From: Blasia pusilla
Taxonomy: Eukaryota
NCBI GenBank assembly: GCA_050084515.1
Contig: CM114271.1
Span: forward strand, 45,756,001 to 45,820,000
Reading direction: 5' to 3'
Length of the DNA stretch: 64,000 bases
The notes under the pieces are model-generated. The model was not told where the DNA came from and searched no databases. It saw nothing but the letters and a program-made list of their open reading frames with translations. The translations under genes were made by a program, and so were the position numbers. Shown piece by piece: positions 1-47,176 of this stretch. The first letter of the stretch is position 1. Each line of letters starts with the position of its first letter.

Positions 1-2064
1 GAATGCCGCTTTCCCCAACATTAGGGGTTGCGCTCTTGAATCCAACAAGAAGCGTTGCAAACCAAAAGCTCTATCTCGTGGACTCACGAACTAGAAGACC
101 TCTCCCCAACTTTACAGCAAAAAAAAACCAAGAGAAGCCATGGCACTCTCTATCATGGGTCTAGCGGGCATCTCTGCCATCCTTGCAGCCGCAGCCTACC
201 ATGAATCTGACATGGATGGCCCAAGCATCAGCTCCAAGGGCAGGTCCAAGACCTCCTCTATAATCACCTCTAAACGTGATGCAGAACTCCAACTCCATGC
301 TCACATCGCGTAGCAGCCAGCCGGAAAACCTTGACAGGCATACCTCCCAACGTCTTTACACTGGAAGCAAAAAGCAAAGGAGCGCGGTCCACAATACTGG
401 CCACTCCTAACAACATGCTCGACACATGCTCCTCCTGAGCATCACCAATAGGAGTCGTTGCACTCCCTTCTCCCATTGCCCTACATGCCTGCACACCAAC
501 AACATCACCAACTCTCCGAGAACTCTGATCAGGACCCATCGATGGGGTCCTCATCGCCTCGGACAACGTGAAGGACTGAGGAAGCCTCGTCTATTTCCTG
601 GCTTCCCTTCGCTATGGTCCAACTCTGCGCTGCTCCACAAGTAATAATTGCATCGGCCTCCATGTGGGCAACCTCGCACATCCAACCAGGATCCTCCACA
701 TCTCTCGCGGCTCCACAAGACGTCGATGCCATAGATTTGGCATCGGGTAACCTCAATGCCATAGCATCAATATCTTTCTTGAGATTTGTTTTATCGAGCA
801 ACCATCCCGACCACATGCCTGGAATCCTCGACGCATCTAGGTGGTTGGACTCTACCTCCTCCATGGGCAACTCCACCATCCCCTTGGATGAATCCAACAC
901 CTCGTCCCCCAATGGGACCACCTAGTGCACGACCTCTGGGCCCACCCTGACCGGGAACTCACTATGGTGCCCTTTCAGGCCCTCGATCTAGACGTAACTC
1001 AAGGTGCAAGCTGAAACACCTAGAGCATGTGTGATCGTACCTCGATAATAGTCACATTGATAACCTTATTATGCAAAGACCATCTCCTCCTCTATCCGAG
1101 GCACGCAACCATGACCCTCACGAGTGCACTCATGATGATGATGGGCTCCACCACATGACCAACAAATAATTGTAAGCGGCTGCTGTTAAGCCGCATATGA
1201 AGGTGCAGGTCTCTGTGGCATGGCCTCCCGATATCCTCCCCGATCTCCCTCGCACACGTGTCCACAGGGTTTGGTCCAACTTTGCGTACCATGACTGGAT
1301 AGCTTGAGCCTCTATCACCCCTTAGTGAAGTTAATCAACCAATGCAAGTGGGTGTAGGCCTCACGCAAACTCTCAGCCGGGCGCCTCTAGAAGTTGTGAA
1401 TGCTCCACAACTTCTTCGTCCGTACCCCGTGGTAGCTCGCCCTCAACTCAACGAAGAACTCAACCACGAGGTTGAACCAGGGACGAACTCGACCAGACGA
1501 TGCAAGTGCTCTAGTGCTAGTCAGCCATTGTACAACATCATTGGTGGAGGAACTCTCTCCTGACTCCTGCTCCTCACCTCGAAATGGCTCAATCCATGAC
1601 ACATAGTGTGGATCATAGTAGAGTCTCCATGCCTCAAGCTCATGGGCATATCTCTGCGAGAGCTTATGGTAGTCGTCCATGGGTGCCCCCTCTAAATGTT
1701 GGAACATTCGGTTCCATGCTGTAAATGGGTTGAACTCTCAGGAGTTCCTGGCCCATTGTGAGTCACACCAACTTCTAAACTCCTCAATGAAGTCGTGTAA
1801 CTCTATAGTGCCTATAGCACCCAAAAATCCACGCGGTCCTCTACCCCTCACTCAAGGAGTTATCCAAGAAAATTGGAAATTTCACTCACACCTTGGAACG
1901 GTGGCTATGGCAGCCCAACAAAAATGATCATAACTCCATGCTTCAATCTCCAAATCATGTATTTCTTCCATAACGTACACCACTTCCTGATCTACAACCT
2001 TATCAAATTGGTTCCACCATTTGATTTTCCACAAAAAATTGTCAAAAATTATCGTGTAGCCCAA
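1..2064 (-). pseudogene. Degenerate gag-like ORF, probably of the PHD-integrase gypsy family
   Basis: Fragmented minus-strand ORFs (IELHDFIEEFRSWCD..FNPFTAW..MFQHLEGAPMDDY) downstream of repeat A and leader Y once the 2232-3607 insertion is removed; gag identity is inferred from position. Confidence 0.45.
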
Positions 2065-3479: not shown

Positions 3480-3497
3480 TGGTGCTTCCACTGAGAG
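3480..3497 (+). promoter_or_regulatory. Primer binding site, tRNA-Thr(AGU)-like
   Basis: TGGTGCTTCCACTGAGAG 2 nt after the LTR CA; two mismatches to the recalled plant tRNA-Thr(AGU) complement TGGTGCTTTCATTGAGAG; variant copy at 8131-8148. Confidence 0.7.
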
Positions 3498-3607
3498 ATC
3501 TTTGATGCGATAGACTGTTTTTGCAAGTTGGAGTCTTATCAAGATGACTACTTCTGATAGTACTTCAAAGGTCCGCCCTTCCTCGAAGAAAGGTTCTCGA
3601 CACGACA

Positions 3608-4297
3608 ACGCTTCCGCGTGCCACTCTTCCACACGAAAAATCGGCAAAGGAAACATCAAAAGTAAGCAGCTCTTGCTTTGGTGAGCTCTTTCATGAACCG
3701 CTGAATAGGGAATAAAATCCCTAACCTGCAAATCAAAACCAGCGAGCTTCCCCATGAAGCTCTCTCACTCATTAATTTCTCTTTTTGTAAATCAAGTAAT
3801 TAAATCCAATCTCTCTCACCACCATAGCTCTCAAATGTGTGCACTTTCTCTCAATGTCAAACCAAGTCCACTCTCCTAATGAGAGGCTTTGGTTGCACTC
3901 ACAAGGCAAGGGACCAAAGGTCCGCCGCCTCATGCCAAGAGGTTCAACAAAAAGAGAATAAGCTCTTAAGCTCTCTCTCCTTGAGGTATACTACCTTCCC
4001 TCTCCCAAACTCTCTCTTCGATAACTATGCTCGTAGGTCACCTGCTTTGCTCTTAACCTGTTGTAGCGGGTCAAGGGCCACTTCCCAAAGTAGAAAGTAA
4101 ACTCTACCAAACATTGAAACTTACCCAAAATAGTAAATTTCTCTATATGGCTCCAAATGAGTCGAAACGAAGGAGAAACCTACTCTCTCAAGTTTCCTAC
4201 GACCTTAGCACGTCATCCTCGACCACCTAAGTCTGGCCTCTTCTACTCGCAAGCCGCTCTACGAGATCTCTCTGACCTATCCTAAAAAGTTGTGACA
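3608..4297 (-). mobile_element. 5' end of PHD-gypsy element: terminal repeat A (starts TGTCAC at 4297) plus leader Y
   Basis: Colinear with 45392-47148; A also at 15075-16132 and 28405-28887. Confidence 0.75.
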
Positions 4298-4355
4298 CAT
4301 TCTTTAAGTGAGTCATTTAGAGTCTAGTCATAAAAACCACCTATTTCTTTTAGTG
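4298..4355 (-). mobile_element. CACTA transposon end fragment
   Basis: Minus strand starts CACTAAAAGAAA at 4355; TGACT motifs resemble 9310-9460. Confidence 0.55.
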
Positions 4356-5575
4356 TCGTCGATCTATCCTAACAAACGTGACAATTTTCGTGCGCATACA
4401 CATTGCTATACAACATACATCATTGTCACCAAACATACACACAAACATACATAATCTCATGCTAACTCATAGAATTCACACAACAAAATGAGAAGTACCA
4501 AAATATCTCCAATCGCCCCCTTAGCTAGTGGTTAGATCCCTCTAACTCGAGATAGCCACCTATCCCTACCTACCATGATATACATCTCTCGGACGCTAAG
4601 AGCAAAAGATCGGATGCTCATGTGGCCCCATCATTAGTTGCCTTCATGTCATCCATGTCACAAACACAAGTTGGAATCTAGAACTACCTACTTTATGTAC
4701 ATCTCAGGCACATCCATCATTCCCTAAGAATCTTAGTGAGAGGTGACGTCAAACATGCCATATGTCATCTTGTTGAACATCCATCATACACTAGCATAGT
4801 GGCTGCACTACAGGCGGAACCACACAACATATATGGCAAGCATGCAAGAACTACTGCTAAGCTTGGATCAACTTTACCATCAATGTTAGGAAGGTGACAT
4901 GGCGCACAATTACACACATGATCCTTCCAAACCATACCATCACATCCCTCCAATAAGAGAACACTAGATGGAAAAATCTCACGCACTCTCAAGATGGATG
5001 TAAGTGCGCCCTAAACTTACATCCAATGTCATGGATACCGTCTGCTGCAAGTAGACATAGTCTCCCTGATGAAACCTCCGGATAGTTGGTCGATAATCAA
5101 CTCCCGAATAGTCACATACCTCAACGTATCCCCATGTTACGTAATCGCCACGTTCTCAAACGCCATGGGCATCACTCTCCAAAATAACTAAGCCCCCTGA
5201 GAACATGCTCACATCCATATATCAGGGTCATCAAGATTCAACACCTCACCAACATCTCGACAAATGGCTATAGGTAAATCCAACTCTCGGCCGTAAAGGA
5301 GCAAATACGATGAGAAAGACACTAAGGATGCTTGCTTGTTGAATTTGTATCTAATCGCCAACCACGGCAACTAGAGGTCCCAATCTCTTAGGTGATCTGC
5401 TTGCAAGCCATACTTGCGTAATCCTCTCTTCACCGTTTGCACAATCCTCTCCGGTAGTCCATATGCCTTAGGATGATCTCGAAAAGTGATGCAATGTTCG
5501 ATCATCACTTGATCACACAAGGCCACGAAACTCCTCGCAAAACTCTGTACCTTTATCTCATCAACACTCCGCCGA
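4356..5575 (-). mobile_element. 3' part of Ty3/gypsy element: integrase core, C-terminal PHD finger, purine tract, repeat X, start of repeat A
   Basis: Integrase GLPERIVQTVKRGLRKY..YLLLYGRELDLP; PHD remnant MLCG..DGC..HMACL..WMCLRC ending 4693; AAGGGGGCGA at 4522-4513; X 4512-4386. Confidence 0.85.
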
Positions 5576-5629
5576 TCTTATTTGTAATGATTTAGCATTC
5601 AATCTAGGAAGGCATACTTGCCACCAATA

Positions 5630-7250
5630 TCTGTATTTGGAGCAAGTTGTATGACCACTTTGAATACTTAGTCATGCCATTTGATCTTACTAATGCACCT
5701 GCAATCTTTATGGGCCTAATGAATGATATCTTTTGTCCATATTTAGACAAATTAATAACATATCTAAAGTGGACATTCACTCTAGTTGGTGGAAAAAGTT
5801 ATCCAAAGCCACAAATGAGGATGAAGAAATTGCAGTTGCTATTCATGCCAACAAAGTATACAAGGCTCAAGGATTGGTTTTCCATAAAGATAAAGTATGG
5901 ATCCCACAAGATTCACAATTACGCATTGAAGTATTTTCTGAAGCTTATGACACAGTCATTGCAGATTAGATGGGAGCTGAAAAAGCCTTAGAGGGATTAC
6001 AACGGGCATACTATTGGCCCAAAATGAGAAAAGATGTTGACGTATATGTAAGGAGTTATAGGATTTGTTAACAAATCAAGGCTAGAAACACAGAATCCGT
6101 TAGATTGTTGTAGCCCATCCCAATACCTCAAAAACATTGGGAACAAATCACTATTGATCTTGTTTGTGAGCTACCATGTACGATCACGGGATATGACTCT
6201 ATTGTGGTCTTTGTGGATAGACTAAGCAAGATGATACACCTTCGTCCGACCAAGAAGACTGTGATTGCACCAGAGTTGGCTAGGATCTACATCGAGACAG
6301 TCTTTGTCCATCATGGTCTTCCTAAAGTGCTTATCACTAATAGGGGAACCCATTTCACGAGTTTATTTTGGAAAGCTTTATTTGGATTGCTCCAAACTAA
6401 ACTAGCCATGTGTACGGCTTATCACCCTCAAACTGATGGACAAACTGAAAGGGCCAACCGTACCATTGAGGATATGCTACGCGCCTTAATATTGGAGGAT
6501 CAACAAGGATGGGACTCATTTTTACCCTTAGTAGAGTTCTCATACAATATCTCCATGAACTCTTCTACTAAGGCCACACCGTTCTTTTAAATGCATGGCA
6601 AGTATTCCTCAATTCCTTCTAGTCTCACTTGAATAGGGAGAAGTCTGAGGGAACCTACAAAAGTAGCTGCAATTAATGAGTTTGTGGACCAAATTCAGAA
6701 AGGGGTTCAACTTGCTAAGGAGAGGTTGGCTATTTCCCAAAATTCACATAAACAACATGCAGATGCTTATCGTCGAGATGTTGAGTTTTTTGAAGGGGAC
6801 AAGGTTTGGTTAGCAACAACCAATTTATCATTAGTAGGAGTTCGTAAGCTTAATCCTCGCTATATTGGGCCTTTCACTATCCTACAAAAAGTAGGCGCCA
6901 TGGCGTATAAGCTAGACCTACCGATGTATATGAAAATCCATCATGTGTTTCATGTCTCTCTCTTCTTTGACCGTTTATTCCACGCCCTAAGAGATTTAAG
7001 GATAATATTGTCACTCCACCACTATCTCAAATAGTTGGAGATCATGAAGAATTTGAAGTGGAACGTATCTTGGAGAAACGCACTCGAGAAGCTCATCACC
7101 AACGAGTTGAATATTTGGTCCAATGGAAAGGATATCCACTATTTGAGGCCACATGGGAACCCTCAGCCAACTTGGCCAACGCACCATTAATAGTACAACA
7201 ATTTGAAAGTTCTCACAACAAGGACATTGTGTCTTAAATGGGGGGAGGTT
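5630..7250 (+). mobile_element. Chromovirus-type Ty3/gypsy pol remnant (RT fragment, integrase, chromodomain, PPT)
   Basis: [51 protein letters not shown]; chromodomain EFEVERIL..YLVQWKGYP..EATWEP at ~7045-7205; GGGGGGAGG then TG at 7251; large deletion between RT and INT. Confidence 0.9.
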
Positions 7251-9309
7251 TGTAGCCACCCTTTGTTAGTAATAGTTAAGTTAGAATCTATGACATGAAG
7301 CGCATAAGTGGAAAAGAATCAACCAAAAAGAGAAAAAGATAAGATACATGATATAAAGATGAGAGGGGCCATAGGTTGGTGAAAAGGAAGACAAGGATGA
7401 GGTTGAGGAAAATGAGGTTGGGACATTAGACTCTAAAGGAGATCCTCTCATGCTATGAGAGTAGGACACGTGGCATAAAGATAGGTAGAGCTAATTTGTC
7501 TTCATTGTACCTATCTCTAAGTATATAAAGGAAGAGGAGAGGCCTTGAGGGATATTCTACCTTTGAGCAACTCTAGAGTGGTTCCAGTTAGAGGATGTTT
7601 GTCAAGTATGGATAGGGGTGGACCACGAGTTTTGCCGGATTTTCTTTTCCTTAACCCGTAGCACATCAAGATTCTCTTTGTAGATAGGTACTGGTTCACT
7701 TGCTATCTAGTTTATCACTTTGGGGACTAGTCATGAACCAAGTCATGCAATCTCGAACTCTGATGATCCTTCCTATAGTCACGTACGGAAGGACATGGGA
7801 TTACACTTTGTATGTCCTTATATAGCTATCCATGGACATCAATAGGCCTGCTCAAGTAGGGTTTAACACTAGTTGTGTGATTTTCTTTGTGTACAAACGT
7901 AAAGTAGTTTACAAGGACTTCATAGTTAGGAATTTCGGGGTTCCATGTTATGAAGAAGTGATCGCCTCGGCACTATCTTTCGTGATTCCTATCGTGAGAG
8001 AATGGATGGTTTACATAATAATTCTGTATTGAAAAAGGAGAAAGTCTTATAGAGTTCGACTTGCATCAACCACGTACGCTGCAACTAGAAGGTCCGTCCT
8101 TACTCGAAGAAAGACTCTTGACACGACAAATGGCACTTCCACTGAGAGATCTTTGAGGCGGTAGATTGTGTTTGCAAGTTGGAGCCTTGTCAATATGACT
8201 ACTTTTGGGAGAACTTCATCAATGGGAACTCAGGGAGCTGAGGAACTTCTCCGAACTTTGACAACATTGTTGAGCCAGCAAGGAGGAGTCCACATAGGAG
8301 AGCAAAAATCAACAAGGCCTCTCCAAGCGATTGTAAAGAAGTTGGGGTGATTTGATGGGAGGAACATCACCAAGTATGTTCGAGAGTATGTGTGTGAGAA
8401 GGAGGTAAACCCTGTACCCGAAGCTGATATGGTGTCAAGTTTTGAGTTAGATGTAATACCAGAGATCCGTAGTCAAGTAAAGAAGTTGAGAGCATAAAAT
8501 CCAACCTCATGGGAGGAGTATGAGCAGTTGCTGAAAGGAGAATTCTTTGATGATGATGTGGATCAGGAGACTAAGAGGAGTTTTCTAGAATGGATAGAGC
8601 AACGTCCAGGGAAGGGAATGACTCCAAATGAATTGTTGCGTGAGTTTGAGAAGCGGTTTTTTAACTTTCTTCTTCCAAAAGGGCAACTCTAGACTTGAGG
8701 AAAATAGAGTTATTCCTTGAGGCGGCTGATGAGAATTTGGAGGATAAGCTTTTCATAATGTTGGCGGACAAGAACAAAGAAGGAGGTGTTAGCACTAATT
8801 GGAAGAAAGTGGAAGAAGCTGTTGCTATTCTCACAAAGCAAAGTCGAAGTAGAGGTAGAACCACACTATTCAAGTTGGAGGTATCAATTTCAAATCCATT
8901 GCCTAAGCCCATGTCTGCAAAGCTTGAAGATTGTGCCATTGATGAGTTGGTGAAAGGTTTGAGAGAGTTGAGAGTAGAAATGGGTGAGCTTAAACTTGAT
9001 AGGAATCCTAGTGTTGGTGCTCCTTCGACAAATAGGAACTTTGTGAGAAGATGTATATGGTGTGATAGTGTTGAGCATCAACGTCGAGAATGTGAAGAGT
9101 TTTTAGAAGCTCTTAGGAATGGAATAGTAAACTTCAAAGATGGGAAGATTCATTCAACGCAGACTCGTATGCCGTTGAATACCAACTTTGGTAGAGGAGG
9201 AATGAAAGGCTTAGTGAGAAGTCAAGTAGGAGTTTCCACTACGACATTAGATTCTGATAACTTTGTAGTAAAAATAGAAGCACCTATTGTATTTGTAGCT
9301 AAAAGTGAA
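7251..9309 (+). mobile_element. Second L1-family copy: LTR (ends 8128), PBS 8131-8148, degenerate gag from 8222
   Basis: LTR homologous to 2290-3477; gag MGTQGAEELL..FDGRNITKY; zinc knuckle CIWCDSVEHQRREC; truncated at a CACTA end; left boundary uncertain. Confidence 0.8.
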
Positions 9310-9470
9310 CACTAGTAGAAAAGGGGCTAGTTTAAACCGAGGTGTTAGTGACTCATGTTACTAAGAGTCATTTGAACTACTCCTAGTTACTCTAAAACAC
9401 GTCAATTGACTCATGAATGACTCACATCCTCGAGTCACATTTAATGACTAGGTTAAACTCATAGAGGAGG
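9310..9470 (+). mobile_element. CACTA terminal inverted repeat and subterminal motifs
   Basis: CACTAGTAGAAAA exactly where the gag ORF ends; repeated TGACTC/GAGTCA motifs; partner end not found. Confidence 0.65.
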
Positions 9471-10244
9471 GAAGAGTTTTTTTTTCTTAGAGATGTTGGG
9501 CAATATTTTGTGAATTTCTTTATTATTATGAACGATGATAAGCCCTCTTTGAGACTATTAGGAAGCCATTATAAGGTTGGTTGATATGGAATATATAAAA
9601 GGGGTGCTAGTAGGTCTTGCCAAAGAAGACTAAAATGAACTAAGGTTTAGAAAGTTGAGATCATTTGATAACAGGAAAATACAAGGAAAACAAGTTAACC
9701 CTAAGTAGCTAAAGACCTACTTTAGCTACTCCGGCGCTTTGTTGAATCACGTTGTCGTCCAAGGCGAAAATACAAGGAACGCGCCTTTTCTCTTTTGCGC
9801 GGTCTCTCATGCTCTTTCAATTCCTTTTGTTTTGTCATGGTAGACATTGTTCTGGTCCGAGTTTGCTATTACACTTTTGACACTCTCGGGACTTCTACGC
9901 GAGAAAGAAGGAAGAAGGCTTGAAGGCTTGAATAGCTCGAGTGTGGAAGTCGCGTGATTTCTGCCTTACAATGGTGGAAAATCGCTTTTTCCAGCTCCAC
10001 CTTCATGAAAGGTTCAGATAAGGCCTTGGATTGCACACACTGGCAGAGAGAGTGCACAAACCCGATCACGTACAGATTTCACGAAGCCGGGTTGCGTATT
10101 TCTTGTCTCTCTTTCTCGTTTCGGCCAAATCCACTTGGTTCTTGGAATCACTTGTTCCAAAATCTGTCCAAGTAGTTTGATGTCATACATTACAACTCAA
10201 GAGACATATCCTGTCAATTTCTTGGCCTACTTGAACAACTGCAC

Positions 10245-10352
10245 TTGTTTGATGACGAGCATCTAGTGCGCCTAAATCTTATCACCCAACTTGAAATGTT
10301 GCACTTCTTTGATGTCCAACATCTAATGCGCCTAAATCTTTCCACCCAACTT
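10245..10352. repeat. 60-bp diverged tandem duplication
   Basis: CATCTA.TGCGCCTAAATCTT..CACCCAACTTGA at 10260 and 10320. Confidence 0.75.
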
Positions 10353-10649
10353 GATTTCCAACATCAGATGACTCAACCATGGGAGTTATTTCTTGTTGCC
10401 CCAACTCTAAGGTTTGACAATCTCTCTGGAGAATGGGACCAAGGTCCTTGAAAGTAGTCGCATGATAATTGTCATAAAACCCTCGATATGCTATGGTTTT
10501 CCCTACTTTAAAATTGGTAGATTTGCAAAAACATTTATTAGTAGCAGTGGTACTATTTACTCCCGTGCATCTCTCTGCGTTCAATCCTACTTAATGGTGA
10601 TAGTATTACCCCAAAACTCATCCCAGCTCACATGCTTCCCAAAGTTGTA

Positions 10650-12715
10650 TAAGAGTCTCTGAGAGTCTCACTTAAAAATTTTCGTAACCAAGTTGCCTCT
10701 CTGAGAGCTCTAGTTAGAGCCATGTACTCTACTTCAGTAGTGGATAGAGCAACAAATTTTTACTTCTTGCTTCCCCAGCATACAGTTGCGTGTCCTAACA
10801 AGAAACAAAAACCAGAGGTTGATGTTCGATCATCCTGATTACCTCCCCAATCAGCATCAGAGTAACCATACAATGGTTCTAGGTTGTTTTTCCTAGTGCA
10901 CACAAGTCCTAAGTTTGTTGTCCCTTTTAGATATCTAAAAATCCTTTTTAGAGCACCCCAATGGGCTCAACGTGGTTCAACCATATATCTAGAAATCATA
11001 CTCACAGCAAAAGAAATGCTAGGCTAGTACAAACCATTGCCCATATGAGACTACCTACTGCACGTTTATAAGGTATCTTTCTCATGAAGCTTCTTTCTTC
11101 TTCATTCCTCGGGGAATCCTTTCTTAATAGCTTCTTCCCTGATTCTACTAGTGTTTCTACAGGTTTGCGGTCTGACATTTTAAACTTTTCAAGTACATTG
11201 TTGACATACCTACTTTGAGATAGTCTAATCCATCCTTCCTTTTTGTTCCTAGTTACTTCCATTTGAAGGAAATGATGGATTTCTCCTAGATCTGTCATTC
11301 TAAACTCCTTTTTCATTGAGTCTTTGACAAATATTAGCAATGGTGTACAATTACTAATCAGTACAGCGTCATCTACGTATAGGGCAAATTCAACAAAATA
11401 TTCCTGATCATTCAGGATGTAAAAATTTGTGTCATTATCACATCTCCGAAATCCTATTTTGATCAGAAATCTATCCATCATTTGATACCACAATCTTGAT
11501 GACTATTTAAGTCCATAAATGGACTTGTGCAGCCTACAAACTTGATCTTGGCAAGTAGGATTTGATAGCCCCTCTGGCATCTCCATGTATACTTCCTCCT
11601 CAAGTATACCATTCAAAAATGTTGTCTTTACATCCATCTTATGTACTTCAAGATCAAACTATGTTGCCAGAGCAAGCATAACTCGGATTGAAGTTTTTTT
11701 TACTACAGATGAGAATGGCTCAGTGTAGTCCACACCATAAACTTGTGAGTAGCCTTTTGCTACCAATCTTGCTTTGTACCTTTCAATGCTCCCATGTGCC
11801 TTGTACTTTATTTTGAAAACCCATTTACATCCCACGGCCTTTCTACCTGGTGGGAGTGAAGTGAATGACCAAGTGTTATTCAACCTCATGGATTCAAGCT
11901 CTTATTCCATTGCATCCTTCCAAAGAACTGCTTGCTGCCCAGAGAGAGCTTCTTCATAGGTCTCGGGTTCTTCAATATTGTTATGCTTCTCTTGTTGACT
12001 CATTAACGCTTGAGTCAACTTCTCCTTATCTGGAGTCCTTGCGTGTGATTCTTGATGTGCTGCATCATATTTCTGCACTTGCCTTGAAACCCTTTCAGAT
12101 CTTCTTGGTCTAGCACTCGCTTGTGTTGGAGTTTTGTTGTTGGACTCTATTTGAACAATCTGTGGCTCCTTTTGAACTTGTTCTCATGCAACATCAAGAA
12201 AACCACTCTCTGTTGGAATCTCACTAGCACTCTTACTAGTACTTGGAGTGCTCATACGTGATGTTAGTACATCTTTTCCTTCAGTGGTAGTCAATGTTGG
12301 AGTTGGTAAGGCTCCCACTAAACTCGTTCCCCAAGACTCCAGGAACTCAAACAAGGAATGGTCCTCCTCTTTACGCAAACCAACAAATGCCACTTTTCCC
12401 TCTTGGAATTTTACATCCCTAGAAGTGGTGATGGTTTTGTCAAATTTCTTTTGCAACATGTATCCTTTTCTTTGCTCTTCATAACCAAGAAGAATACATT
12501 TAGTTTTATGATTTATGATTTTACATCTAGTTTTCTCCTCTGAGAAGAAGGAATTAGTGCAAAAGTCAGACACCAAAAATTCTATTGTGACTAAGATCTG
12601 GAGGCTCTCTGTACCAAACCTCATATGGTGTCTTAACACCCTCCAGAGCCTTTTTTGGTGATCTGTTCTGCAAATAGTTTGCTGTCACTATTGCTTCACC
12701 CCAAAAAGTTTTCGA
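10650..12715 (-). mobile_element. Degenerate Ty1/copia pol (integrase end, RT, RNase H)
   Basis: [60 protein letters not shown] order; stops and frameshifts. Confidence 0.92.
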
Positions 12716-12734
12716 GTGACAAGCCAATCTTCCG

Positions 12735-14764
12735 ACGACCCTACAAGTACAATGACATGGAGAGGGTTTTGATTCTGAGTAGCAGCCAAGACTTGGTCGG
12801 AGCAGACTAGTGGAGATGTTGCATGGAGAGTATGCATCTGTCATTGTCATGCCCATCAAGAAGGATGTGCATGGAAACTGGACGGATAGGTGGATGTGTG
12901 GAGATTACCAACCTATCAATCGATAGACAAAGTTCGATAGGTATGCCAAGCCTACCCCTAAGGAGATCTTTGATATGATTGGGCATACAAAGATCTTCAA
13001 TTCATTGGATTTGAGAGCCGGATACCATCAGCTACCTATCAGATTGGAGGACAGGCAGAAGACGGCATTTTGGGGCATTGATCCTCACAAGAAGGATTGA
13101 TTGTGCCACTGGTAGCTCTTACCATTCGGGTTAAAGAACGCCCCGGCTGAGTTTCAGAGGATCGTGGATAGGATCTTGGCATGTCTTGATTTTGCTAGAT
13201 GTTACATTGATGATGTCGTAGGTTTTAGTGCCACGGTTGAGGAGCATGAACGACATCTAAAGGAGGTGTTTCGACGATTGCATTTACATGGGATGAAGCT
13301 ACATCCAAATAAGTGCAAGTTCTTCTACGACTAGATTGAGCACTTGGGTCATACGATATACCCAGGGGGCCTTGGTATGCAGCAGATGAAGATAGAGGCT
13401 ATTTCATATTTTCCACGCCCTACAGATGTGAGTCGAGTTTGTGCATTCATGGGATTGGAAAACTTCTATTGACGGTACGTCAAGGGTTTCTGTTTGATTG
13501 CACCGCTAACCTTGCTAACCAAGGTGGATTAGGAGTGGCACTGGGGGGATGAGCAAGAGAGAGCATTTAAGCTGCTCAAAGATATATTGACGTCTGTGCC
13601 CATATTTAGGAGATTGATCAGTGGACGTCATTTCCAGTTGCATGCCAATTGGATCATGTTGGGGCTTGGAGCCGTGCTCACCTAGCATGACGATGATGGT
13701 AGAGAGTTTGTGGTGGCTTACGCTAGTCAATCAAACAATGTTGCAGAGGCAAAGTATAGCTTGTATGAGGATGAGTGCTTGGCAGTGGTGTGGCAGTCAT
13801 AAATTTCAGGTCTTATTTATTCAGCAACCCCCTTACCATCATTACCAATCATCAGCCACTTAAGTTGTTGATGGAGTCCGACAAGCTTACAGGGAAGCTT
13901 GCAAGGTGGGCTCTTTTGTGCAGGAGTATAACTTCCAAGTGATGCATAGACCTAGGATGCTCAACTAGGATGCACAAAGTTTGAGCCGTAGCCCATGCTC
14001 GAGTCAGCGAGATGCGATTGGAGCTTGTTGGCATGGTGAGAGTGATGAGGAGTTGATGCTAGGATGGCACGCGTCAGCCTATTTGGGCATGTTGGCTATG
14101 AAGAGCCAAGTTGTTGAGACTTTGGTTGCGAGGTCTGATGGAGAGTCCTTAGATCCAGAGGCTGGTGAGGAGACGATAGGTGGCCGAGATATTCACGACG
14201 AGGGAGTAGTCTTTGAGTACTTACGTACTGGCATCTTCGCGAGCAGAGTGGGTGCTAGAGAGCAGGATCGGATCCTACAGCGGGCCAGACGGTTCCAGTG
14301 GGAGGGAACACATGTGTTGCAAGTTTGGGAGGATGGTAGAGTGTGTGTAGTGCCTCATCCTTTGCAGAGAGCACATTTGGTACATCATGCCCACGAGGAG
14401 TTGGGTCATTTTGGAGTGAAACGGACGTACAGCTTGCTCCACATATAATATTGGTGGCAAGGCATGGAGACTGACATTCAACAGTTGGTTGTCAGATGCA
14501 TGGTGTGTGATCGAGTCCGGGCATCGTTCAATGCTCCGACTCCACACTTGCATCCACTTCCGATCATGGGTTTAGGTTATAGATGGAATTTGGATTTTGC
14601 AAGACCTTTACCTTTTACATAGCGTCAAAGTTCTTATGTATTGGTGATGGTCGAGCACTTCTCGAAGTGGATAGAGTTGGTTGTGAGGATAGCATATGGC
14701 ATGTGTGAGGCCACCTCTCACTAGGGTTCTTAAGGGATGATGGATGTGTTCTAGATGTACATAG
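12735..14764 (+). mobile_element. Degenerate pol of PHD-gypsy family (RT, RNase H, integrase with internal deletion, PHD C-terminal half)
   Basis: LDLRAGYHQL; PFGLKNAPAEFQR; CYIDDV; HEELGHFG..CMVC; INT breaks at FSKWIELV (~14683) and jumps to HMACVRPPL..WMCSRC. Confidence 0.9.
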
Positions 14765-14945
14765 AGTTGGTAATTCTAGATTTTGACTTGTATCTATTAT
14801 ACGGATGAAAAAAAGGCGACTAACGATGGGGCCACTTGAGCTCCCGACCCTTATACTCTTAGCATCCGAGAGATGTATGTTATGGTAGGTATGGATAGAT
14901 AGCTATCTGGAGTTAGAGGGACCTAACCACCAACTAGGGGAGGGA

Positions 14946-16259
14946 TTGGAGATATTTTGGTACTTCTTTTCTTGTTGTTTTGATGCCATGAGTTAGCATG
15001 GGATCATGCGTGTTTGTGTGTATGTTTGTCGAAAATGATGTATGTTGTATAGCGATGTGTATGCATACCACAATTGTCACGACTTTTTAGGATAGATCAA
15101 AGAGATCTGGTAGAGCGCCTTTGTGAGTAGAGGAGGACGGACTCATGAGATTGAGGATGATCTGCCGAGGTTCTGGAAAACCTAAAAGAGCATGTTTTCC
15201 CTTCGTTTCGGCTCATTTGGACCCATATAGAGAAAGTTTATATTTTGGGTAAGTTTCTATGTTTGGTAGAGTTGACTTTCCACTTTGGGAAGTGGCCCTT
15301 GACCCGCTACAACAGGTCAAGAGCCAAGGAGGTCACGACTTTTTAGGATAGATCGGAGAGATGTGGTAGAGCGCCTTTGCAAGTAGAGGAGGATAGGCTC
15401 ATGAGGTCGAGGATGACCTACTGAGGTCCTGGAAAACCTAAGAGAGCATGTTTCCCCTTCGTTTCGGCTCATTGGGAGCCATATAGAGAAACCTACTATT
15501 TTGGGTAAGTTTCCATGTTTGGTAGAGTTGACTTTCTACTTTGGAAGTGGCTCTTGACCCGCTATAGTAGATCAAGAGCCAAGGACATGACCTGTGAGCA
15601 TAGGTTACCGAAGAGAGAGCTTGGGAGAGGGAAGGGGGTGTACCTCAAGGAGAGAGAGCTCGAGGGATCATTCTCTTTTTGTTGAACCTCTTGGCATGAG
15701 GCGGCGGAGCTATGGTTCCTTGCCTTGTGAGTGTAACCAAGGTTGCTTATGGACAAAGTCCGTGGCCGTGGATATGTCCATGTCCATGGACTTATGTCCG
15801 TCTTATGGAAGAACTTGTCTTTATGGGCCCCATCTTTCCTTTCTTTGTGCTTTCCCTTACTTGCCTTCGTATTCCATACTCCCCCATTTCTTCCTCCCTC
15901 CACCTCCACTCCCTCCTCCCTCATTGCTCCACTCATCCTTGACTTGCCTTCCATCATGTACGATAAGTGTGGATCCCACTCTTAGAACCCATGTCCGTGG
16001 ACATGTCCGGACTTACGCCTCCATGTTCGTCCTAAGGAAGGACTTGTTCGTTTTTTAGTGTAATCCAAGCCTTTCCTTAGGAGAGTGGATTTGGTTTGAT
16101 ATTAAGAGAGAGATTGGATCTACTTGATTTGATTGGAGATATTTTGGTTCTTATTGTCTCGTTGTTTGGATGTCATGAGTTGGCATGGGATCGTGTGTGT
16201 TTGTGTGTATGTTTGTCGACAACTATGTATGTTGTGTAGCAATGTATATGCGCACGAAA
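14946..16259 (+). repeat. 3' terminal repeat block X-A-X of PHD-gypsy element
   Basis: X 14946-15072 after AGGGGAGGGA; CA-AT-TGTCACG junction; A 15075-16132 (first ~257 bp duplicated, ~320-bp insert at ~15743-16057); X again 16133-16259. Confidence 0.8.
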
Positions 16260-16449
16260 ATTAACTCAAATTATGACTAAATTGGTTTAGTCACAAAATT
16301 TAGGTTTGTACAACTCACCTAATCATTTGCATATGACTAAAGTGGTTATCAATACCCCTTAGAAAAGACGAGTAATACCTATTTCACTTGCATAGTTATA
16401 TTGAGTCATAAACATCGATTGATATGTTTAAATGATTTCATACTCAAAT

Positions 16450-18000
16450 GTTGTCGTGTTTTTTTATTGCTGTTGGGATATAATTCCTTACCCTAAGTTT
16501 AAATACCATTATTTTATTTGTGTTCTTTGGGTTGGGATGCCCCTTTGGGGGCATTTTTGGTATGAGTATGTTTCCTGATTTTTTGACGCCTAGTTGAAAA
16601 ACCTAGTTCGGGGAGGGTAGAAAAAGAGGTATGGAGAAAACCTTCTTCCAACCATTGGATGGTGATGAAAATTTGTAAAAACCTTTGCATTAAATATCTT
16701 CAAAACTTCAACGGTTTAGATCTGCCATTTAGCCCCCCATACTCATACCAAAAATAGAAAACCTTGTTTAGGGTTTACAATTTTTAATTTGGTCTATGAG
16801 TGGTCATTTGAAGTCTTTTATTTTCCCTTGTTTTTTGTTTATGGAAAAGCTTTATGATTTTTGGACCCCTAGTTGAGGGTGGAGGGGAGAAAAAGGGGGA
16901 TCAAGAGGACTTTCAATAGCATTCTTCAAAGTCGTTGTGTCATTTTGATGTTAACATGGAGTTATCCTTTCTTTCCACCATCTTATGGTGATGAAAAGTG
17001 GCCGGATCCTTTCCAAAAAAATCTCTCCAAAACGTCAATGATTCAAATCTGCTATTTAGCCCCCCATACTCATACAAAAAATGAAAGACCTTGTTTAGGA
17101 GTTACGATTATTAATTCCATGTGTATGTAGTCATTTGAAGTTTTTCCTTTTCCCTTCTGTTCCTGTCATTGGATTTTCCCTTTGGGAAATGTTTCTTGAT
17201 TTTTTGACCGGTTCTCGAGGGTGGAGGGGAGAAAATGGGAGGTCAAGATGGACGAAGAGGACTTACAAAAGGATTGTTCCAAGTCATTGTGTCATTTTCA
17301 TGTTAACATGAAGGTATCTTTTCTTCCCACCATTGGATGGTGATGAAAATTGGCACAAGCCTTTTCAATAAATCTCTACATAAATTAAACAATCAGATCT
17401 GCCATACATACTCATACAAAAAATGAAGAGCCTTGTTAAGGCTTTATCATTTTTAATTCCATTTGTGAATGGTTATTTGAAGTTTTTTCTTTTCCCTTGC
17501 ATTCTTGTCATTGGAGTGCCACTCTTGGAAAATTTTCTTGATTCGAGGACCCCTTGTTTAGGGTGGAGGGGAGAAAATGGGGGTCAAAATGGTTGAGGAG
17601 GGCTATCAACATAATTGTTCCTAGTCCTTGTCTCATTTTGATGTTAACATGGACATCTTTTTTCTTCCAACCATTGGATAGTAATGCAAATTGGCGAGAG
17701 CCTTTCCATTAAATCTCTCTTGACCTTCAACGCTCAGATCTGCCATTTAGCCCCCCATGCTCATACCAAAATTGGAAGACCTTATTTAGTGGTTATTTTT
17801 CTAATTCCATCCGTGAGCGGTCATTTGTAGTTTTTTCTTTTCCCTTGTGTTTGTGTCATCAAAGTGCACCTATGGGAAAAAAATTTGGTTTTGGTTCCCT
17901 GGTTGAGGGTGGAGGGGAGAAAAAGGGGGGCTCAAGAAGGATGAGAAGGACTTTCAATTGCATTCTTCCCAATCGTTGTGTCATTCTCAAGTTTACATGG
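16450..18000. repeat. Diverged tandem array R1, period ~342-346 bp
   Basis: GAGGGTGGAGGGGAGAAAA anchors at ~16875, 17217, 17559, 17905; partial unit at ~16605. Confidence 0.85.
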
Positions 18001-21000
18001 AATATTTTTTCTATTGGGAGCATGACGTAGAAGTGCATGCTCCGACAAGGTTTCATGATTTATGGGCCACCAGAAGAAGAGGTCGAAGAAAGAAGAAGAG
18101 GAGTGTTATAGGTGTAAAGTTCTAAGTCTCCATTGAATTTTACTGGTCTTATCCACGCACCCAAACCTCCCACCGTTGGATGGACATGGAACACGAGGGA
18201 TTTTTAATTCCTTCTAAGGGTGGTCATTTGGAGATTTTCTATGATGCGGAAGTGCATGTTCCAACAAGGTTTCATGATTTATGGGCTAGCGGAAGAAGAG
18301 TGGAGCCAAAAAATGTCGAAGAAAGAGGAAGATGAATGATGTAGGAGTAAGGTTCCATATCTCCATTGAATTTTACTTGTCTTATTCATGCACACCTCCC
18401 ACCGTTGGATGGTCATGAAACATGATGGATGTGGGGTTGGCAATGCCCTCTTGCACATGGACGGTGTAGATCTTGAATATGATTCTCCATACTCAGTTAA
18501 AAATTCCAAAATCTCATGTAGGGTTTTTGATTTTTAATTCCTTCTATGGGTGGTCATTTGGAGATTTTCTATCACACGGAAGTGCATTTTCCAACAAGGT
18601 TTCATGATTTATGGGCCAGGGGAAGAAGAGGGGGGCCAAGAAATGTCGAAGAAGAGGAACATGAGTGATGTAAGAGTAAAGGTTCAAGTCTCCTTTGAAT
18701 TTTACTCATCTTACCCATGTACATGGAGCTCCCACCGTTGGATGGACGTGAAACACAAGGGATGTGGCTTGGCAATGCCCTCTTGCCCTTGGACGGTGTG
18801 GATCTTGGATATCATTCTCCATACTCACTTAAAAATTTGGGAACCTCACTTAGGGTTTTTCATTTTTAATTCCTTGTATGGGTGGTTATTGAGATTTTGT
18901 ATGACGCAGAAGTGCATATTCCAACAAAGTTTCATGATTTATCCGCCAGCAGAAGAAGATTGGGGCCAAATGTCGAAGAAAGAGGAAAATGAATGATGTA
19001 GGAATGAGGTTCCAAGTCTTCCTTGAATTTTACTCCTCTTATTCACGCACCTAGAGTTCCCACCTTTGGATGGACATGAAACACAAGGGATGTGGGGTTG
19101 GCAATGCCCTCTTGCCTTTGGACGGTGTGGACCTTGAATATGATTCTCCATACTCAGTTAAAAATTTTGAAGCCTCATTTTGGGTTTTTATTTTTAATTC
19201 CTTCTATGGGAATTTTTAAAAAAAAACCCGAAATGTCATTTGGAGATTTTCTTTTTATGTTGGGAGCACGACATGGAAGTGCATATTCCAAAAAATTTCA
19301 TGATTTATGGGCCTGCAAAAGAAGAGGGTGGCCATAAAATGTCGAAGAAAGAGGAAGATGAAAAAATGTAGGAGTAAAGGTCCAAGTCTCCTTTCAAATT
19401 TTACTCGTCTTACCCACGTACCCGGAGCTCCCACCCTTGGATGCACGTGAAATAAGAGGGATGTGGGTTTGCCAATGCCCTCTTGCCCTTGGAGGGTGTG
19501 GAGCTTGAATATCATTCTTCGTACTCAATTAAAAATTTTGAAACCTCACTTAGGGTTTTTTATTTTTAATTCCTTCTATGGGTGGTCATTTGGAGATTTT
19601 GTATGATGCGGAAGTGTATGTTCCATCAAGGTTTCAAGATTTATGGGCTAGCAGAAGAAGAGGGAGTCCAAAAAATGTCGAAGAAAGAGGAAGATGAATG
19701 ATGTAGGAGTAAAGGTCCAAGTCTCCTTTGAATTTCACTGGTCTTATCCATGTATCCGGAGCTCCCATCCTTGGATGGACGTGAAACAAGAGGGATATGG
19801 GTTTGCCAATGCCCTATTGCCCTTGGAGGGTATGGAGCTTGAACATCATTCTCCATACTTAGTTTGGAAACCTCACTTAGGGTTTTTTTATTTTTAATTC
19901 CTTCTTATTGAAGATTGAGTTAAAGTCAACGCTCATGAGGCACCTGAACTGCAACATTTGCTACTCACACAAAGTAGGGAAGCTTAATCGTGGTTAGTCA
20001 GTTAAGCGCGATTATCTTCACTAGGGTTAGTTAATCACAATTAGTTTAACTCGAGACTATGGTTAAGATTAGGATTAGGGTTGCTTGTACATACCCTATA
20101 TAATTGAGAAGGGGGCCAGCCTCCATTCATTCTCTCATTGCAAATGTGGTTCTCCATGATGGTGTGTGAGTGCGAGAACCGTTTACCATCAGATATGCTT
20201 CTTTAGTAGTTTTCCACATGGTACTAGAGCGATAGAAGAACATCACTTGAAATTCTTGGTGTTTGAGGAGATAAGAGATGCAAGAGAAGGCACAATTTCA
20301 GTTTGGGAGAAGGAAATTTTGTTCACAACTCAGTGGGTGCAAATTTCAAACGGAGCTTTGACGGTGATAAAACTCTAGAGACATTTTTTAAGGCTTTCCT
20401 GGTCGATTTAGCCATCTCGGTCCGCAACGGCTGCAATGATGCCAATATCTAGTTATAATAATCTTGTAGATCTCGTCGAGAGCTTTCCAACGCATCCAAA
20501 ATTGCTCAATTCTGACATTCTGAGCTCCTGCAGTAGCAATTTCAGTGTAGGAAAGTGCAAGTAGTTAAGAAAAGTTGTGCAATTTGCTCTCTACAGGCCA
20601 ATTTCGACTAGTTCTTTCATACAGTTGATCAATTTTGGAAAATTTCAGGTCGATTTCTTGTAGGAATGATCTATGCTTCAATTGGAGCAATAAAGAGCTT
20701 GAAATTATATTTTTTTTGAGTGAAATCGTTCGTCATGGAATATTCCTAAGTAGCAATCACATGTGAGAAGCTAGATAAGCAAAATTATAATGTCTGGAAG
20801 TTTCGCATAAAACAATCTCTCATGGGTCAAGAACTATGGGAGCTTGTCACAGGTGATGAGGCCAAGCCAGAAGGTGACTCAACAGACTTGAATGTTTGCG
20901 CTTGGAACAAACGCACAAGGCAAGTAATCCACTACATTTCAATAACGATCAATTCGCCAATGATAGGTCGCATTCAAGATGTTGATATTCCGAAGGAGGC

Positions 21001-28404: not shown

Positions 28405-29002
28405 AACAGAGCGCCTTTGGAGATACTAAAGGATAGCCTCAAGAGGCCGAATATGACCTGCTGAGGCCATGGATAACTTATGAGAGTTGTTTTTCCCTTT
28501 GTTTTGGCTCATTTGGAGCCATATTGAGGAAATTAATATTTCGGGTAAGTTACCATTTTTGGTTTAGTTGACTTTCCACTTTGGAAAGTGGCCCTTGACC
28601 AACTATAGTAGGTCAAGAGCCAAGGAGATGACCTGCAAGCATAGCTTAATGTGGAGAGGGCTTGGGAGAGGGAAGGGGGTATGCCTCCAAGAGAGAAGGC
28701 TTGAGATCTCATTCTCTCTTTTTTTAACCTCTTGGCATGAGGCGGCAGAGCTATGGTCCTTGCCCTGTGTGTGCAACCCGCCTCTCATTAGGAGAATGGG
28801 TTTGGTTTGACATGAGAGAGAGAGTGCATACCATGGAGAGCATGGTGTGAGACCTTGTTGTTGAGATGGAGAGATTTGATTGATTTATTGGAGATATTTC
28901 GGTACTTCTCGTCTCGTTGTGTGAATTCCATGAGTAAACATAGGATTGTGTATGTTTGATGATAGAGATGTATGCTGTGTTGCGATGTGTATGCGCACGA
29001 CA
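28405..29002 (+). repeat. 3' terminus A-X of PHD-gypsy family (left-truncated)
   Basis: Homologous to ~15365-16259 without the internal insert; X 28888-29002 ends GCGCACGACA then unrelated sequence. Confidence 0.8.
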
Positions 29003-45290: not shown

Positions 45291-45304
45291 AGCTCATAAA
45301 TCAA

Positions 45305-45391: not shown

Positions 45392-45739
45392 ACTATTCCG
45401 CACGCACCTCTTCCGCATGAAAAATTGGCAAATAAACAACAAAATCAAGCGGATCTTGCTCCGGTCAGCACTCCCATGAGCCGTTGAATGGGGAACACGG
45501 TCCCTAACTTGCAACAACAAGTGAACAGTGAACTCCTTATTGAAACTCTCTCGCTCACTCATTCTCTCTTTGTATATCAATTACTTCTCTCAACATCTCA
45601 CACCAAACTCTCCATGGTGTGCACTCTCTCTCATGTCAAACCAAACCCACTCTCCTAATGAGAGGCTTGGATTGTACACACAAGGCAAGGAGGACCATAG
45701 CTCCGCCGCCTCATGCCAAGAGGTTCAACATAGAGAGAG

Positions 45740-46720
45740 TGTCGCGACCCTCATGACCAAACGAGTGCCAAAGCGGAACATTGGAACATTAGCGGGCTCA
45801 CGCTAAGATGGTTTGCGCGTTGGAGTGGTCTTGAACAAGAGACAAGAGACGAGACACAAGTGAGGCTTCGCGTTTCAGATGTTATGGTCTCGACTAAGAA
45901 ACCTGGACCAAACGCGGAACAAGACTTGAAAGGAGTTGAGTCTAGGAAGTGGTTTGCCAAAGGAAGAATCCATATTTGGAACGCCACTAGCGTTTGAGAT
46001 TTTCCGACTGTATTTATGGCCATAACTTTTAGCGCCAAGATGCGTTTGGATCGAAAAAGGGTGCGTTAGAAGACTTATGGAAAGATAGTTCAAGCGCACT
46101 AAAGATCTCTACAAACGCATGAGCAGCAGCTGAGAAACAACCCAGAAACGACTATAAGTAGAGTCGGGTTGAGGGCCACAACAAAGGGCCCGACCCTCCT
46201 TTTCCAAAAGGGGGTTATTGGAGAATCCCAGAAGTACTAGTAAGGGGGAAGGTCTCCGAGAGTGCGTGGAACTCGAACCCCACTTTGGGCGCCACGGGGC
46301 GGCTCAAGGGCATGGAACAGATCGAGAGTTTGGGGTTGAGTTGGAAAACCTGAACCAAGTCTACGGAGGTGATTTTAGACATCCCTCTTGGATTTCACCC
46401 CGCGACTCAATTACTTGGGTCTTGGTTTGGAAGTCACACAAGGTCCGTTGAACAATTGGGATCGCTAGGCGCGCAAGTGCCGTTTTAGATTCCTAGACTA
46501 ATCAGGAAGTCTGTTCCAAGTCTTGAAGGACTTGCCATGTTTTGGAAACTAGGAAGTAAGGGAGGTTGAGCTTGCTGAGACGCTGAGTTGAGAACTCGGT
46601 GGGTTGGAATGCTAGTTGACCCAGACCCGACTAACGAGATTGCGTGTTTGGGTGCAGATCGGCGATGAGATCGTGTCCTACTGAACGTACGCTTCCGCAA
46701 CGATAAAGATTGACGTTCAA
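45740..46720. mobile_element. LTR-like insertion into the GA tract of repeat A
   Basis: Begins TGTCGCGAC right after AGAGAGAG; host repeat resumes after the GA run; no coding motif seen. Confidence 0.5.
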
Positions 46721-46721
46721 G

Positions 46722-46723
<2 letters not shown>

Positions 46724-46812
<89 letters not shown>
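46724..46812. repeat. Long (GA)n microsatellite
   Basis: About 90 bp perfect GA run. Confidence 0.98.
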
Positions 46813-46814
<2 letters not shown>

Positions 46815-47176
46815 CTCAAGATCTCTCTCTTGGAGGTATACCCCCTTTCCTCTCCCAAACTCTCTCCTCAATAACCTATGATCGCACGTCACCTCCTTGG
46901 CTCTTGATCTATTGTTGCAGGTTAAGGGACACTTACCAAAGTAGAAAGTCAATGATACTCCAAATAAAAACTTGCCCAAAATAGTAAGTTTCTCTATACG
47001 GCTCCAAATGAGCCGAAACGAAGGGAAAACCTGCTCTCTCATGTTACCCGTGGCCTTAAAAGATCATCCTCGACCTCTTGAGGCTATATTCTAGTATCTC
47101 CGAAGGTGCTCTAGTATATCTCGCCGATCTATCTTAAAAGTCGTGACACCGCACTTTATATTTATATATATATATA

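Follow-up and report, generated by a model that had tools for sequence, protein, structure and literature searches.

Evidence for split direct repeats in an abundant Ty3/gypsy-type retrotransposon family of Blasia pusilla

Retroelements of the Ngaro, PAT-like and DIRS groups carry split direct repeats in the order A1-genes-B1-A2-B2, and this arrangement serves to recognise elements with a tyrosine recombinase. Their internal B1-A2 junction reproduces the joint of both ends, and in Ngaro and PAT elements it has been proposed as the template for the strand switches that rebuild these ends. The present work concerns a repeat family found in a 64,000-nt stretch of Blasia pusilla DNA (contig CM114271.1, positions 45,756,001 to 45,820,000; hereafter the window), which resembles these groups in its split direct repeats. 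Those groups encode a tyrosine recombinase and no DDE integrase, whereas the Blasia family appears to encode a DDE integrase and a protease.

The original prediction, made from the letters of the window, had considered split repeats typical of tyrosine-recombinase elements and foreign to gypsy elements. The second half of this premise is incomplete, as a gypsy element from Klebsormidium nitens, KnitGypsy-Dnmt3, is described in a figure legend as having the repeat structure of a DIRS element and the domain composition of a gypsy element (Fig. 4c of de Mendoza et al. 2018, PMC5890265); according to the Fig. 1e legend, the DIRS structure is A-coding region-B-A-B. Judged by this description rather than by sequence comparison, KnitGypsy-Dnmt3 and the Blasia family are alike in their gypsy domains, their A-coding-B-A-B repeats and their streptophyte host. 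The available passages of PMC5890265 give no account of the primer sites, ends or mechanism of the Klebsormidium element. A literature search with its name returned that paper and one 2026 preprint with a passing mention, and searches for split direct repeats in LTR (long terminal repeat) retrotransposons, or for a PHD finger together with integrase and gypsy, found no analysis of such elements. The sole prior mention found is one figure legend without analysis, at least in the available part of PMC5890265. The layout thus seems to be on record for a related element, with no published account of its origin found, and the Blasia family would not be a first; it is a new and very abundant example of a barely described kind. 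What it adds is a purine tract at one of the repeats, a possible self-priming site and TG...CA ends at an internal junction.

The Blasia family resembles the plant Ty3/gypsy elements surveyed for REXdb (Neumann et al. 2019, PMC6317226) in the order reverse transcriptase (RT)-RNase H (RH)-integrase, the purine tract before the 3' repeat and the TG...CA ends. It seems to differ from them in that its repeats do not form two identical end LTRs, and a PHD finger instead of a chromodomain closes the integrase; the term PHD does not occur in the main text of the survey, as far as it was available. LTR finders expect two identical terminal LTRs and a target-site duplication. Such tools would go wrong in annotating a very abundant DDE family with a split layout, and dating by LTR pairs would give false ages for it.

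Repeat order and element type in the window

The window is a patchwork of nested, decayed repeats. Self-BLAST and direct reading of the letters locate in it three repeated pieces, X, A and Y, at the places where they had first been noticed (Table 1). X (about 127 bp) is present in four copies which are 73-87% identical (E 1e-18 to 1e-39), and A (about 500 bp) in four copies with 77-88% identity (E 1e-47 to 1e-131). The leader Y (73-74% identity) is common to both minus-strand copies of A. Identities of 73-88% imply that all these copies are old. They are distributed over five fragments, two on the plus strand (P, 12706-16259; P2, 28408-29002) and three on the minus strand (M1a, 5655-4354; M1b, 4297-3612; M2, 47148-45392), in which the order of the pieces is consistent with A-Y...pol-purine tract-X-A-X.

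Table 1 Features of the family in the window, by fragment
Fragment	Feature	Position	Strand	Basis
P	RT, RNase H, integrase zinc finger, start of integrase core (first catalytic D)	12706..14685	+	Pfam, tblastn
P	Last 24 codons of PHD finger and short 3' untranslated region	14687..14935	+	tblastn (P0005 residues 1014-1037)
P	Purine tract AGGGGAGGGA, adjoins X; likely plus-strand primer site	14936..14945	+	direct reading
P	X1, ends CA	14946..15072	+	BLAST, alignment
P	Dinucleotide AT between ...CA and TG..., centre of ACAATTGT	15073..15074	.	direct reading, read consensus
P	A, begins TGTCACG	15075..16132	+	self-BLAST
P	X2 straight after A, ends CACGAAA, then ATT and window-unique DNA	16133..16259	+	direct reading, BLAST
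P2	5'-truncated A (28408-28887) into X (28888-29002), ends CACGACA, then window-unique DNA	28408..29002	+	BLAST, reading
M1a	Integrase core (second D, E), SH3-like part, C-terminal PHD finger	4699..5655	-	tblastn, Pfam
M1a	3' part: purine tract AAGGGGGCGA (4522-4513), X (4512-4386), AT (4385-4384), A stub joined to ...ACGACA (4383-4354), then spacer (4353-4298)	4354..4522	-	reading, BLAST
M1b	A, TGTCAC start at 4297, holds CT-rich segment 3960-3947	3788..4297	-	BLAST, reading
M1b	Leader Y, up to a chromovirus-type LTR (2937-3611) that cuts it at about 3611	3612..3787	-	BLAST
past M1b	Gag-like frame, zinc-knuckle-like motif, protease start; runs off the window	1..1950	-	translation
M2	Unique flank, TGTCAC at 47148, then A with an interruption; holds CT-rich segment 45741-45728	45573..47148	-	BLAST, reading
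M2	Leader Y, broken at about 45391 by another small repeat	45392..45572	-	BLAST, reading

The junctions between these pieces carry the argument. Both pol ends, those of P and M1a, run from the integrase-PHD finger through the purine tract, X and two bases into TGTCAC of A, and the ten-base purine tract touches the first base of X in both; the PHD finger with which the polyprotein closes lies about 170 bp upstream of this tract. The X|A junction reads CA-AT-TG at 15071-15076 in P and AA-AT-TG at 4387-4382 in M1a, as had been predicted. All copies retain the arms TGTC and GACA of this site, whose two central bases are AT in both window junctions and GT or AC in two consensus strings obtained from loose read ends at 15341 and 16257. 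At the other side, A passes without a gap into a further X at 16132/16133 in P and at 28887/28888 in P2, which also agrees with the first description, including the CACGACA end of P2. Finally, M1a retains a 25-bp stub of A to which ...ACGACA is joined, in appearance the final bases of X; a 56-bp unique spacer follows.

The outer ends are equally regular. Both A-Y copies begin with TGTCAC after unrelated DNA (47148 and 4297), and the three copies that reach the other end (16259, 29002 and the remnant at 4354) finish with the last bases of X, followed by unrelated DNA. The claim that the 5' ends have no X before them stands for 47148, which is preceded by unique DNA. For 4297 it needs a correction: X is not directly in front, but the X of the neighbouring pol end lies 87 bp upstream. 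The ends present in the window do not fit two identical terminal LTRs, each copy retaining one end at most. One possibility is that these are nevertheless remains of an ordinary gypsy element with identical X+A LTRs, the window ends being truncations and the extra X the start of a tandem LTR. The purine tract beside X and a stretch after A that resembles a primer-binding site (PBS) would delimit just such an X+A unit, the order pol-X-(stub, 56 bp)-A-Y at 4512-3612 would also be compatible with a single LTR flanked by two internal regions, and the copies are all old and rearranged. Yet five independent breaks within a few bases of one X|A site (47148, 4297, 16259, 29002 and 4354) would be required, which makes random truncation unlikely, and the precedent in the related Klebsormidium element would go unexplained.

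Alternatively, the element could be an ordinary one whose LTR is A+X (TGTCAC...CACGACA), in which case the 3' untranslated region would close with an X-like stretch, X1, and a sister family with another U5 would account for the A-Y copies. The TG...CA ends with their short inverted repeat would suit this model, and A-X followed by unique DNA resembles a 3' or solo LTR in two copies. Nevertheless, the purine tract precedes X in both pol ends and there is none before A. Moreover, the A-Y copies have the whole A tail of the A-X copy at 28408, and the two types split sharply at a single point (...GATTTA followed by CAAA... or by TTGGAG...). The four X copies, when aligned, do not sort by position either: among nine sites that divide them two against two, five pair both X of copy P, two group the copies by position and two do so in the third way. 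The five sites would fit the origin of both X of one copy from a single template, a pattern that falls short of significance with so few sites. X1 and X2 of P differ by about 13-15% and the tandem A units described below by 12%, a similar divergence that would likewise fit two X made from one template at insertion; both observations would speak against an old LTR of the form X-A-X. Such an LTR at both ends was considered and rejected on account of the A-Y copies, in both of which A leads straight into the PBS-like start of Y.

P is the only fragment with X-A-X in one piece, and its A is unusual. The first 256 bp or so are tandemly duplicated (15075-15330 and 15331-15585, 88% identity), and there are 316 additional bp (15741-16056) that none of the other three window copies of A contains. 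Since the second tandem unit begins at the first bases of A, X-A-X might be a nesting accident, a second A-X insertion at about position 256 of an older A. This seems very improbable: the rest of the supposed older copy is missing past X2, the 28408 copy and the 4354 remnant give independent A-X ends, and the A-to-X and X-to-A junctions are both common in reads.

The genes next to these repeats were identified with Pfam, run on read-through translations with stops written as X, and with tblastn of an intact relative obtained by protein search, P0005 (1039 residues, RT-RH-integrase-PHD). Residues 66-725 of P0005 align with 12706-14685 of P (50-71% identity) and residues 723-1037 with M1a (46% identity, E 2e-69). 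P0005 is colinear over both ranges, and the pol order RT-RNase H-integrase is that of Ty3/gypsy (Metaviridae-type) elements. In P, which is cut off upstream of about 12706 and decayed in its RT-RH part (nine stops), Pfam matches RVT_1, RT_RNaseH_2 and Integrase_H2C2 in this order within 12975-14525, the last at 14368-14525. Residues 1014-1037 of P0005 reappear at 14687-14758, and the 3' pol end of P is 81-82% identical to 4764-4518 of M1a. Because residues 725 and 1014 adjoin at 14685/14687, P must have lost about 288 codons within the integrase, a deletion that is backed by 1798 reads from one run (X10) which continue past 14683 with integrase-core letters. The integrase of P breaks at P0005 residue 725 and M1a begins at residue 723, and 296 raw reads, which also back the deletion, connect 14683 to 5617; the match of the two points may be either a coincidence or a shared breakpoint within the integrase core.

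The predicted DDE-type integrase was recovered, with the catalytic residues, placed by eye against P0005, split over two decayed copies: the first D in ...NLDFA... (P), the second D in ...DKGTEF... and E in ...GLPERIVQT... (both M1a). The Pfam domain rve has no match in the window copies; PF00665 (rve) is found in 19 of the 24 nearest relatives (P0002-P0025) among the matches listed. The PHD finger of M1a gives a weak match (4824-4698, E 8.6e-5), at 22.9 bits under the 24-bit cut-off, and the PHD-ending C-terminus of P0005 aligns with both P and M1a. Direct reading, the Integrase_H2C2 match, the weak PHD match and tblastn thus agree with the two pol ends as they were first described. No match to the tyrosine recombinase domain (Phage_integrase) was obtained in 5001-14950 on the plus strand or in 4500-7600, 8219-13000, 1-2936 and 37500-45400 on the minus strand, and the domain is also missing from the close relatives listed.

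The gag-protease frame past M1b has 19 stops in translation. Over its last 67 residues it shares 43% identity (E 2e-10) with the pre-protease/protease part of P0004, a Marchantia protein with protease, DNMT and RT regions. In tblastn against the window, the RT region of P0004 in turn matches copy P with 64% identity. As the frame is related to P0004, itself near copy P, it supports the view that A-Y is the 5' end of an element of the same clade, on the supposition that the frame continues across the inserted LTR. Used as a query, the frame matched nothing among longer proteins and one protein among those of similar length. Pfam returned no domain for the 7.9 kb that follow the 47148 copy downstream, and that region, where M2 is interrupted by other repeats, has no similarity to the region upstream of P. 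One of these repeats, of 79 bp (81% identity) and with an internal hairpin-like stretch, interrupts the M2 leader (45391-45313, minus strand) and recurs near the M1b leader in the opposite orientation (2232-2310, plus strand); it may be a small inserted element. Taken together, the domains suggest a family of Ty3/gypsy type with gag, protease, RT, RNase H and a DDE integrase that ends in a PHD finger.

The family in whole-genome reads

About 1% of each of two raw whole-genome runs with the same species label (X10 and X11), as well as two Logan contig sets, were mapped on 3500-16700 at 80% likeness. The junctions given here are the best-supported ones, 11014 further loose ends and 609 further joints lying outside the listing. 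Depth over pol is about 2300-2900, whereas the least-covered bins have 2-4 and the flank past X2 has 15; from this, a family on the order of a thousand copies can be roughly estimated. At the right end of P, depth falls from about 900 to 15 in the bin that follows X2. The additional segment within the A of P is covered by some 213 reads at 16016, compared to thousands in A. The bin holding Y has a depth of about 1290, above the value of about 850 in the A bin next to it. Y is therefore high-copy as well, which, together with the gag-protease of the same protein clade that follows it, is difficult to reconcile with a separate A-Y family.

Both junctions of the split layout are common in the raw reads. 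The A-to-X junction is present in 283 reads of X10 and 320 of X11, which connect three points of the A tail to the first base of X (joints to 14945). On the X-to-A side, 868 X10 reads that map to the start of A have a loose upstream consensus formed by the X end plus NN-TGTCACG (agreement 0.53), and 1263 X10 reads continue beyond the X end with a consensus that begins NN-TGTCAC (agreement 0.43). Loose ends in the pol region agree at 0.8-0.92. The low agreement where A starts and where X ends suggests that these ends border different sequences in a large proportion of cases, as element termini would. The letters that follow the X end in many reads have no match within the window at up to three mismatches, and no conserved leader besides NN-TGTCAC occurs past the X end among the read rows listed.

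These counts bear on the ordinary-LTR models. If the LTRs were X+A, the common A-to-X junction would have to come from tandem LTRs, in addition to the five coincident breaks, and we consider this model unlikely. If they were A+X, a leader would be expected after X and the A-Y copies would have to form a family of their own, so that this model seems quite unlikely. Both readings, which need either coincident breaks or a separate A-Y family, fit less well. It is probable that the split layout A-Y-genes-purine tract-X-A-X is real and a property of the family.

Primer sites and a possible origin of the layout

The prediction that A-Y has no recognisable tRNA-type PBS holds: no conserved stretch starting with TGG lies at or near A|Y in the two copies, by inspection and with no tRNA library searched. 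What the A|Y boundary does contain is a 14-base stretch (3788-3775 in M1b, the last base of A plus the first bases of Y) that is complementary at 12 of 14 positions to a CT-rich segment 169-173 nt upstream, at a homologous site in both copies. In mononucleotide shuffles of the upstream 300 nt, which keep the mononucleotide content only, 12/14 pairing was reached in 0 of 1000 and 3 of 1000 cases; the pairing of M1b is a perfect 12-mer (1 of 500 shuffles). One position differs between the copies on both sides of the pairing, with the result that pairing is preserved. A TATA motif is found about 32 nt upstream of the pairing segment in two of four A copies. In M2, a (CT)n run and foreign DNA of about 1 kb break up A (46802-45742). 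The run spans about 85 bp (46810-46725), and both it and the foreign DNA (46724-45742) lie beside the CT-rich putative transcript start.

In Tf1, the transcript primes reverse transcription with 11 nt of its own. The pairing at A|Y suggests self-priming of this kind in the Blasia family, a lead that presumes a transcript start at the CT-rich segment. Self-priming would explain the missing tRNA-type site, and it would place the end of the LTR (U5) at A|Y. Given the purine tract at X, reverse transcription would in that case produce an X+A LTR. The original prediction that X+A is the true LTR, primed at the purine tract, gains support from both sites, the purine tract being present in both pol ends and the PBS-like stretch in both A-Y copies. 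The family would resemble Tf1/sushi and plant Tcn1 elements in having no tRNA-type site and a post-LTR stretch complementary to a segment within the LTR, possibly the transcript 5' end. Unlike the Blasia family, Tf1/sushi, Tcn1 and TAR are chromoviruses or copia elements with ordinary LTRs. In the available passages of the REXdb survey, self-priming is predicted for 12% of plant elements, mainly Tcn1 and TAR (PMC6317226).

Several scenarios may reconcile an X+A LTR with the order of the integrated pieces. We lean towards one in which this abundant gypsy-type family has integrated split repeats because a joined-LTR form of the element, with X+A as LTR, is opened at X|A. Reverse transcription would proceed as in ordinary LTR elements. 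As in Tf1, the 5' end of the transcript would fold back on the PBS-like beginning of Y and prime the minus strand; the plus strand would be primed at the purine tract, yielding X+A LTRs. The ends recognised by the integrase (TGTC...GACA, that is, TG...CA) would lie at the internal X|A site and not at the LTR edges. The substrate would be two LTRs joined head to tail, in a two-LTR circle or a tandem-LTR molecule, opened at the leader-side X|A. Insertion would give a lone A at the left end and X-A-X at the right end. The A-to-X joint would be the former LTR-LTR junction, which would explain why this joint always begins at the first base of X. The copy would stay replication-competent, as the promoter and R would lie in A and the X-A on the right would serve as the template for U3. 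Retroviral integrases are able to cleave LTR-LTR junctions that are palindromic.

Alternatively, the same layout may be replicated in another way: the internal X-A would template strand switches, giving a linear cDNA TGTCAC...CACGACA which is inserted as usual by the DDE integrase, with no LTR-LTR ligation. The evidence for the layout, from junctions and reads, is shared by both explanations. The TG...CA ends with a 4-bp inverted repeat resemble ordinary integrase substrates, and the constant first base of X at the A-to-X joint suits templated synthesis better than end-joining; the related layout is termed DIRS-like in the figure legend of PMC5890265. Yet the purine tract at X and the PBS-like A|Y are what an ordinary LTR-type process needs and would yield X+A LTRs, and for DDE elements no strand-switch scheme has been shown. 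We regard strand switching as rather unlikely. The confidence expressed above in the layout is the sum of that placed in the opening of a joined-LTR form and that placed in this rival, which shares the layout.

A number of points weigh against the opening of joined LTRs at X|A. As the original prediction had cautioned, there is no complete copy: none in the window has both ends, a full A...X-A-X or a target-site duplication. P, the only one-piece X-A-X, could be a composite of two insertions, in view of its second tandem unit that begins at the first A bases. Its X2 is followed by ATT, as had been noted, which resembles an X|A junction. At 4297, two elements of the same orientation lie just 56 bp apart and can be read as one rearranged molecule. 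The A-to-X joint is without the CA seen after A in the A-Y copies. As for the reads, the agreement values of 0.43-0.53 are an indirect measure, the flank|X and A|flank ends predicted by the ordinary model fall outside the counts, and the ratio of LTR to pol depth is uninformative at 80% likeness and this divergence. Chance matches are favoured by the composition of the pairing, with a CT-rich segment opposite a GA-rich PBS-like stretch. Finally, a circle or tandem-LTR intermediate and the action of integrase at the internal site are things that we infer rather than observe, the circle step from the permuted order and the TGTC...GACA look of the X|A site only. Overall, the interpretation first given to these repeats is partly supported.

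If the layout stems from the opening of joined LTRs, the old question of whether LTR-LTR junctions are true integration substrates would be revived, with a natural test system. A broader hypothesis would be that the whole streptophyte clade of PHD-tailed DDE-integrase elements (liverworts, charophytes and Blasia) inserts, as a rule, a circularly permuted genome, which would come from a joined-LTR intermediate with self-primed X+A LTRs, opened by the integrase at the internal X|A site. We consider this possible but somewhat doubtful. In that case, split direct repeats would no longer be the signature of tyrosine-recombinase retroelements, and a natural element would be using two-LTR junctions productively as a substrate for integration.

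Relatives and neighbouring features

A protein search with the RT-RH of copy P, restricted to longer proteins, listed 120 matches. The best relatives among them are 60-67% identical, the named ones being from the liverworts Calypogeia and Marchantia, and Closterium comes next among the matches listed (42-45%). Of the 24 nearest relatives (P0002-P0025), 14 combine rve with a PHD finger and none has a protease domain, among the matches listed; the Marchantia model P0004 has a protease motif upstream of RT. A C-5 cytosine methyltransferase domain (DNA_methylase) is present in at least four of the 120 (P0004, P0017, P0018 and P0022), upstream of RT in P0004 and P0017, and some relatives of the window RT carry DNA_methylase, rve and PHD in one protein. 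Two of the methyltransferase-bearing relatives are Marchantia proteins, and the methyltransferase-bearing gypsy group seems to extend to liverworts. No methyltransferase like that of KnitGypsy-Dnmt3 was found in the window, but the part between protease and RT, the site of this domain in relatives, is missing from every copy: P begins at P0005 residue 66 and the gag-protease frame runs off the window.

Other candidate relatives were not retained. A PHD finger in the Chlamyvir clade was not borne out, since the available passages describe chromodomains. A metagenome scan with the RT-RH protein found no relative, and one with a DNA pattern of X end and A start found nothing. A scan of IMG/VR returned 65 loci, of which only L001-L004 are gypsy-like; their integrases are 24-28% identical with no PHD match, which places them in another clade, and L003 is a collapsed circular assembly (99-nt terminal overlap) in which the repeat order is unreadable. 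The remaining 61 loci, on contigs of about 7-10 kb, match in RT-RNase H only (26-33%) and are presumably pararetrovirus genomes.

The surroundings of the family consist of further repeats. A gag-like open frame at 8665-9315 (plus strand, 216 codons) has a read depth about ten-fold lower than that of P pol; it was dropped as a part of P on account of this depth and of its position beyond a nested Ty1/copia element, and it probably belongs to another family. The copia element (about 10000-12900, minus strand) shows RVT_2 (E 1.8e-64, about 11877-11150) and a retroviral SH3-like domain at a depth of 2-20. A truncated chromovirus occupies 5650-8218, with an RT fragment, integrase, SH3_Tf2-1, a chromodomain (7055-7210) and an LTR (7589-8218). 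A second copy of this LTR (2937-3567, 84% identity, with a partial internal duplication to 3611) lies on the far side of M1a and M1b, which stand between the two LTRs on the other strand. Tandem arrays with units of about 330-345 bp (73-85% identity) are found at 16631-18012, 18006-19905 and 25188-26650, the first beginning 370 bp past copy P. Beside them lie the long dispersed repeat pairs 19906-21871/62049-64000 and 19906-20216/24905-25214, with 82-88% identity.

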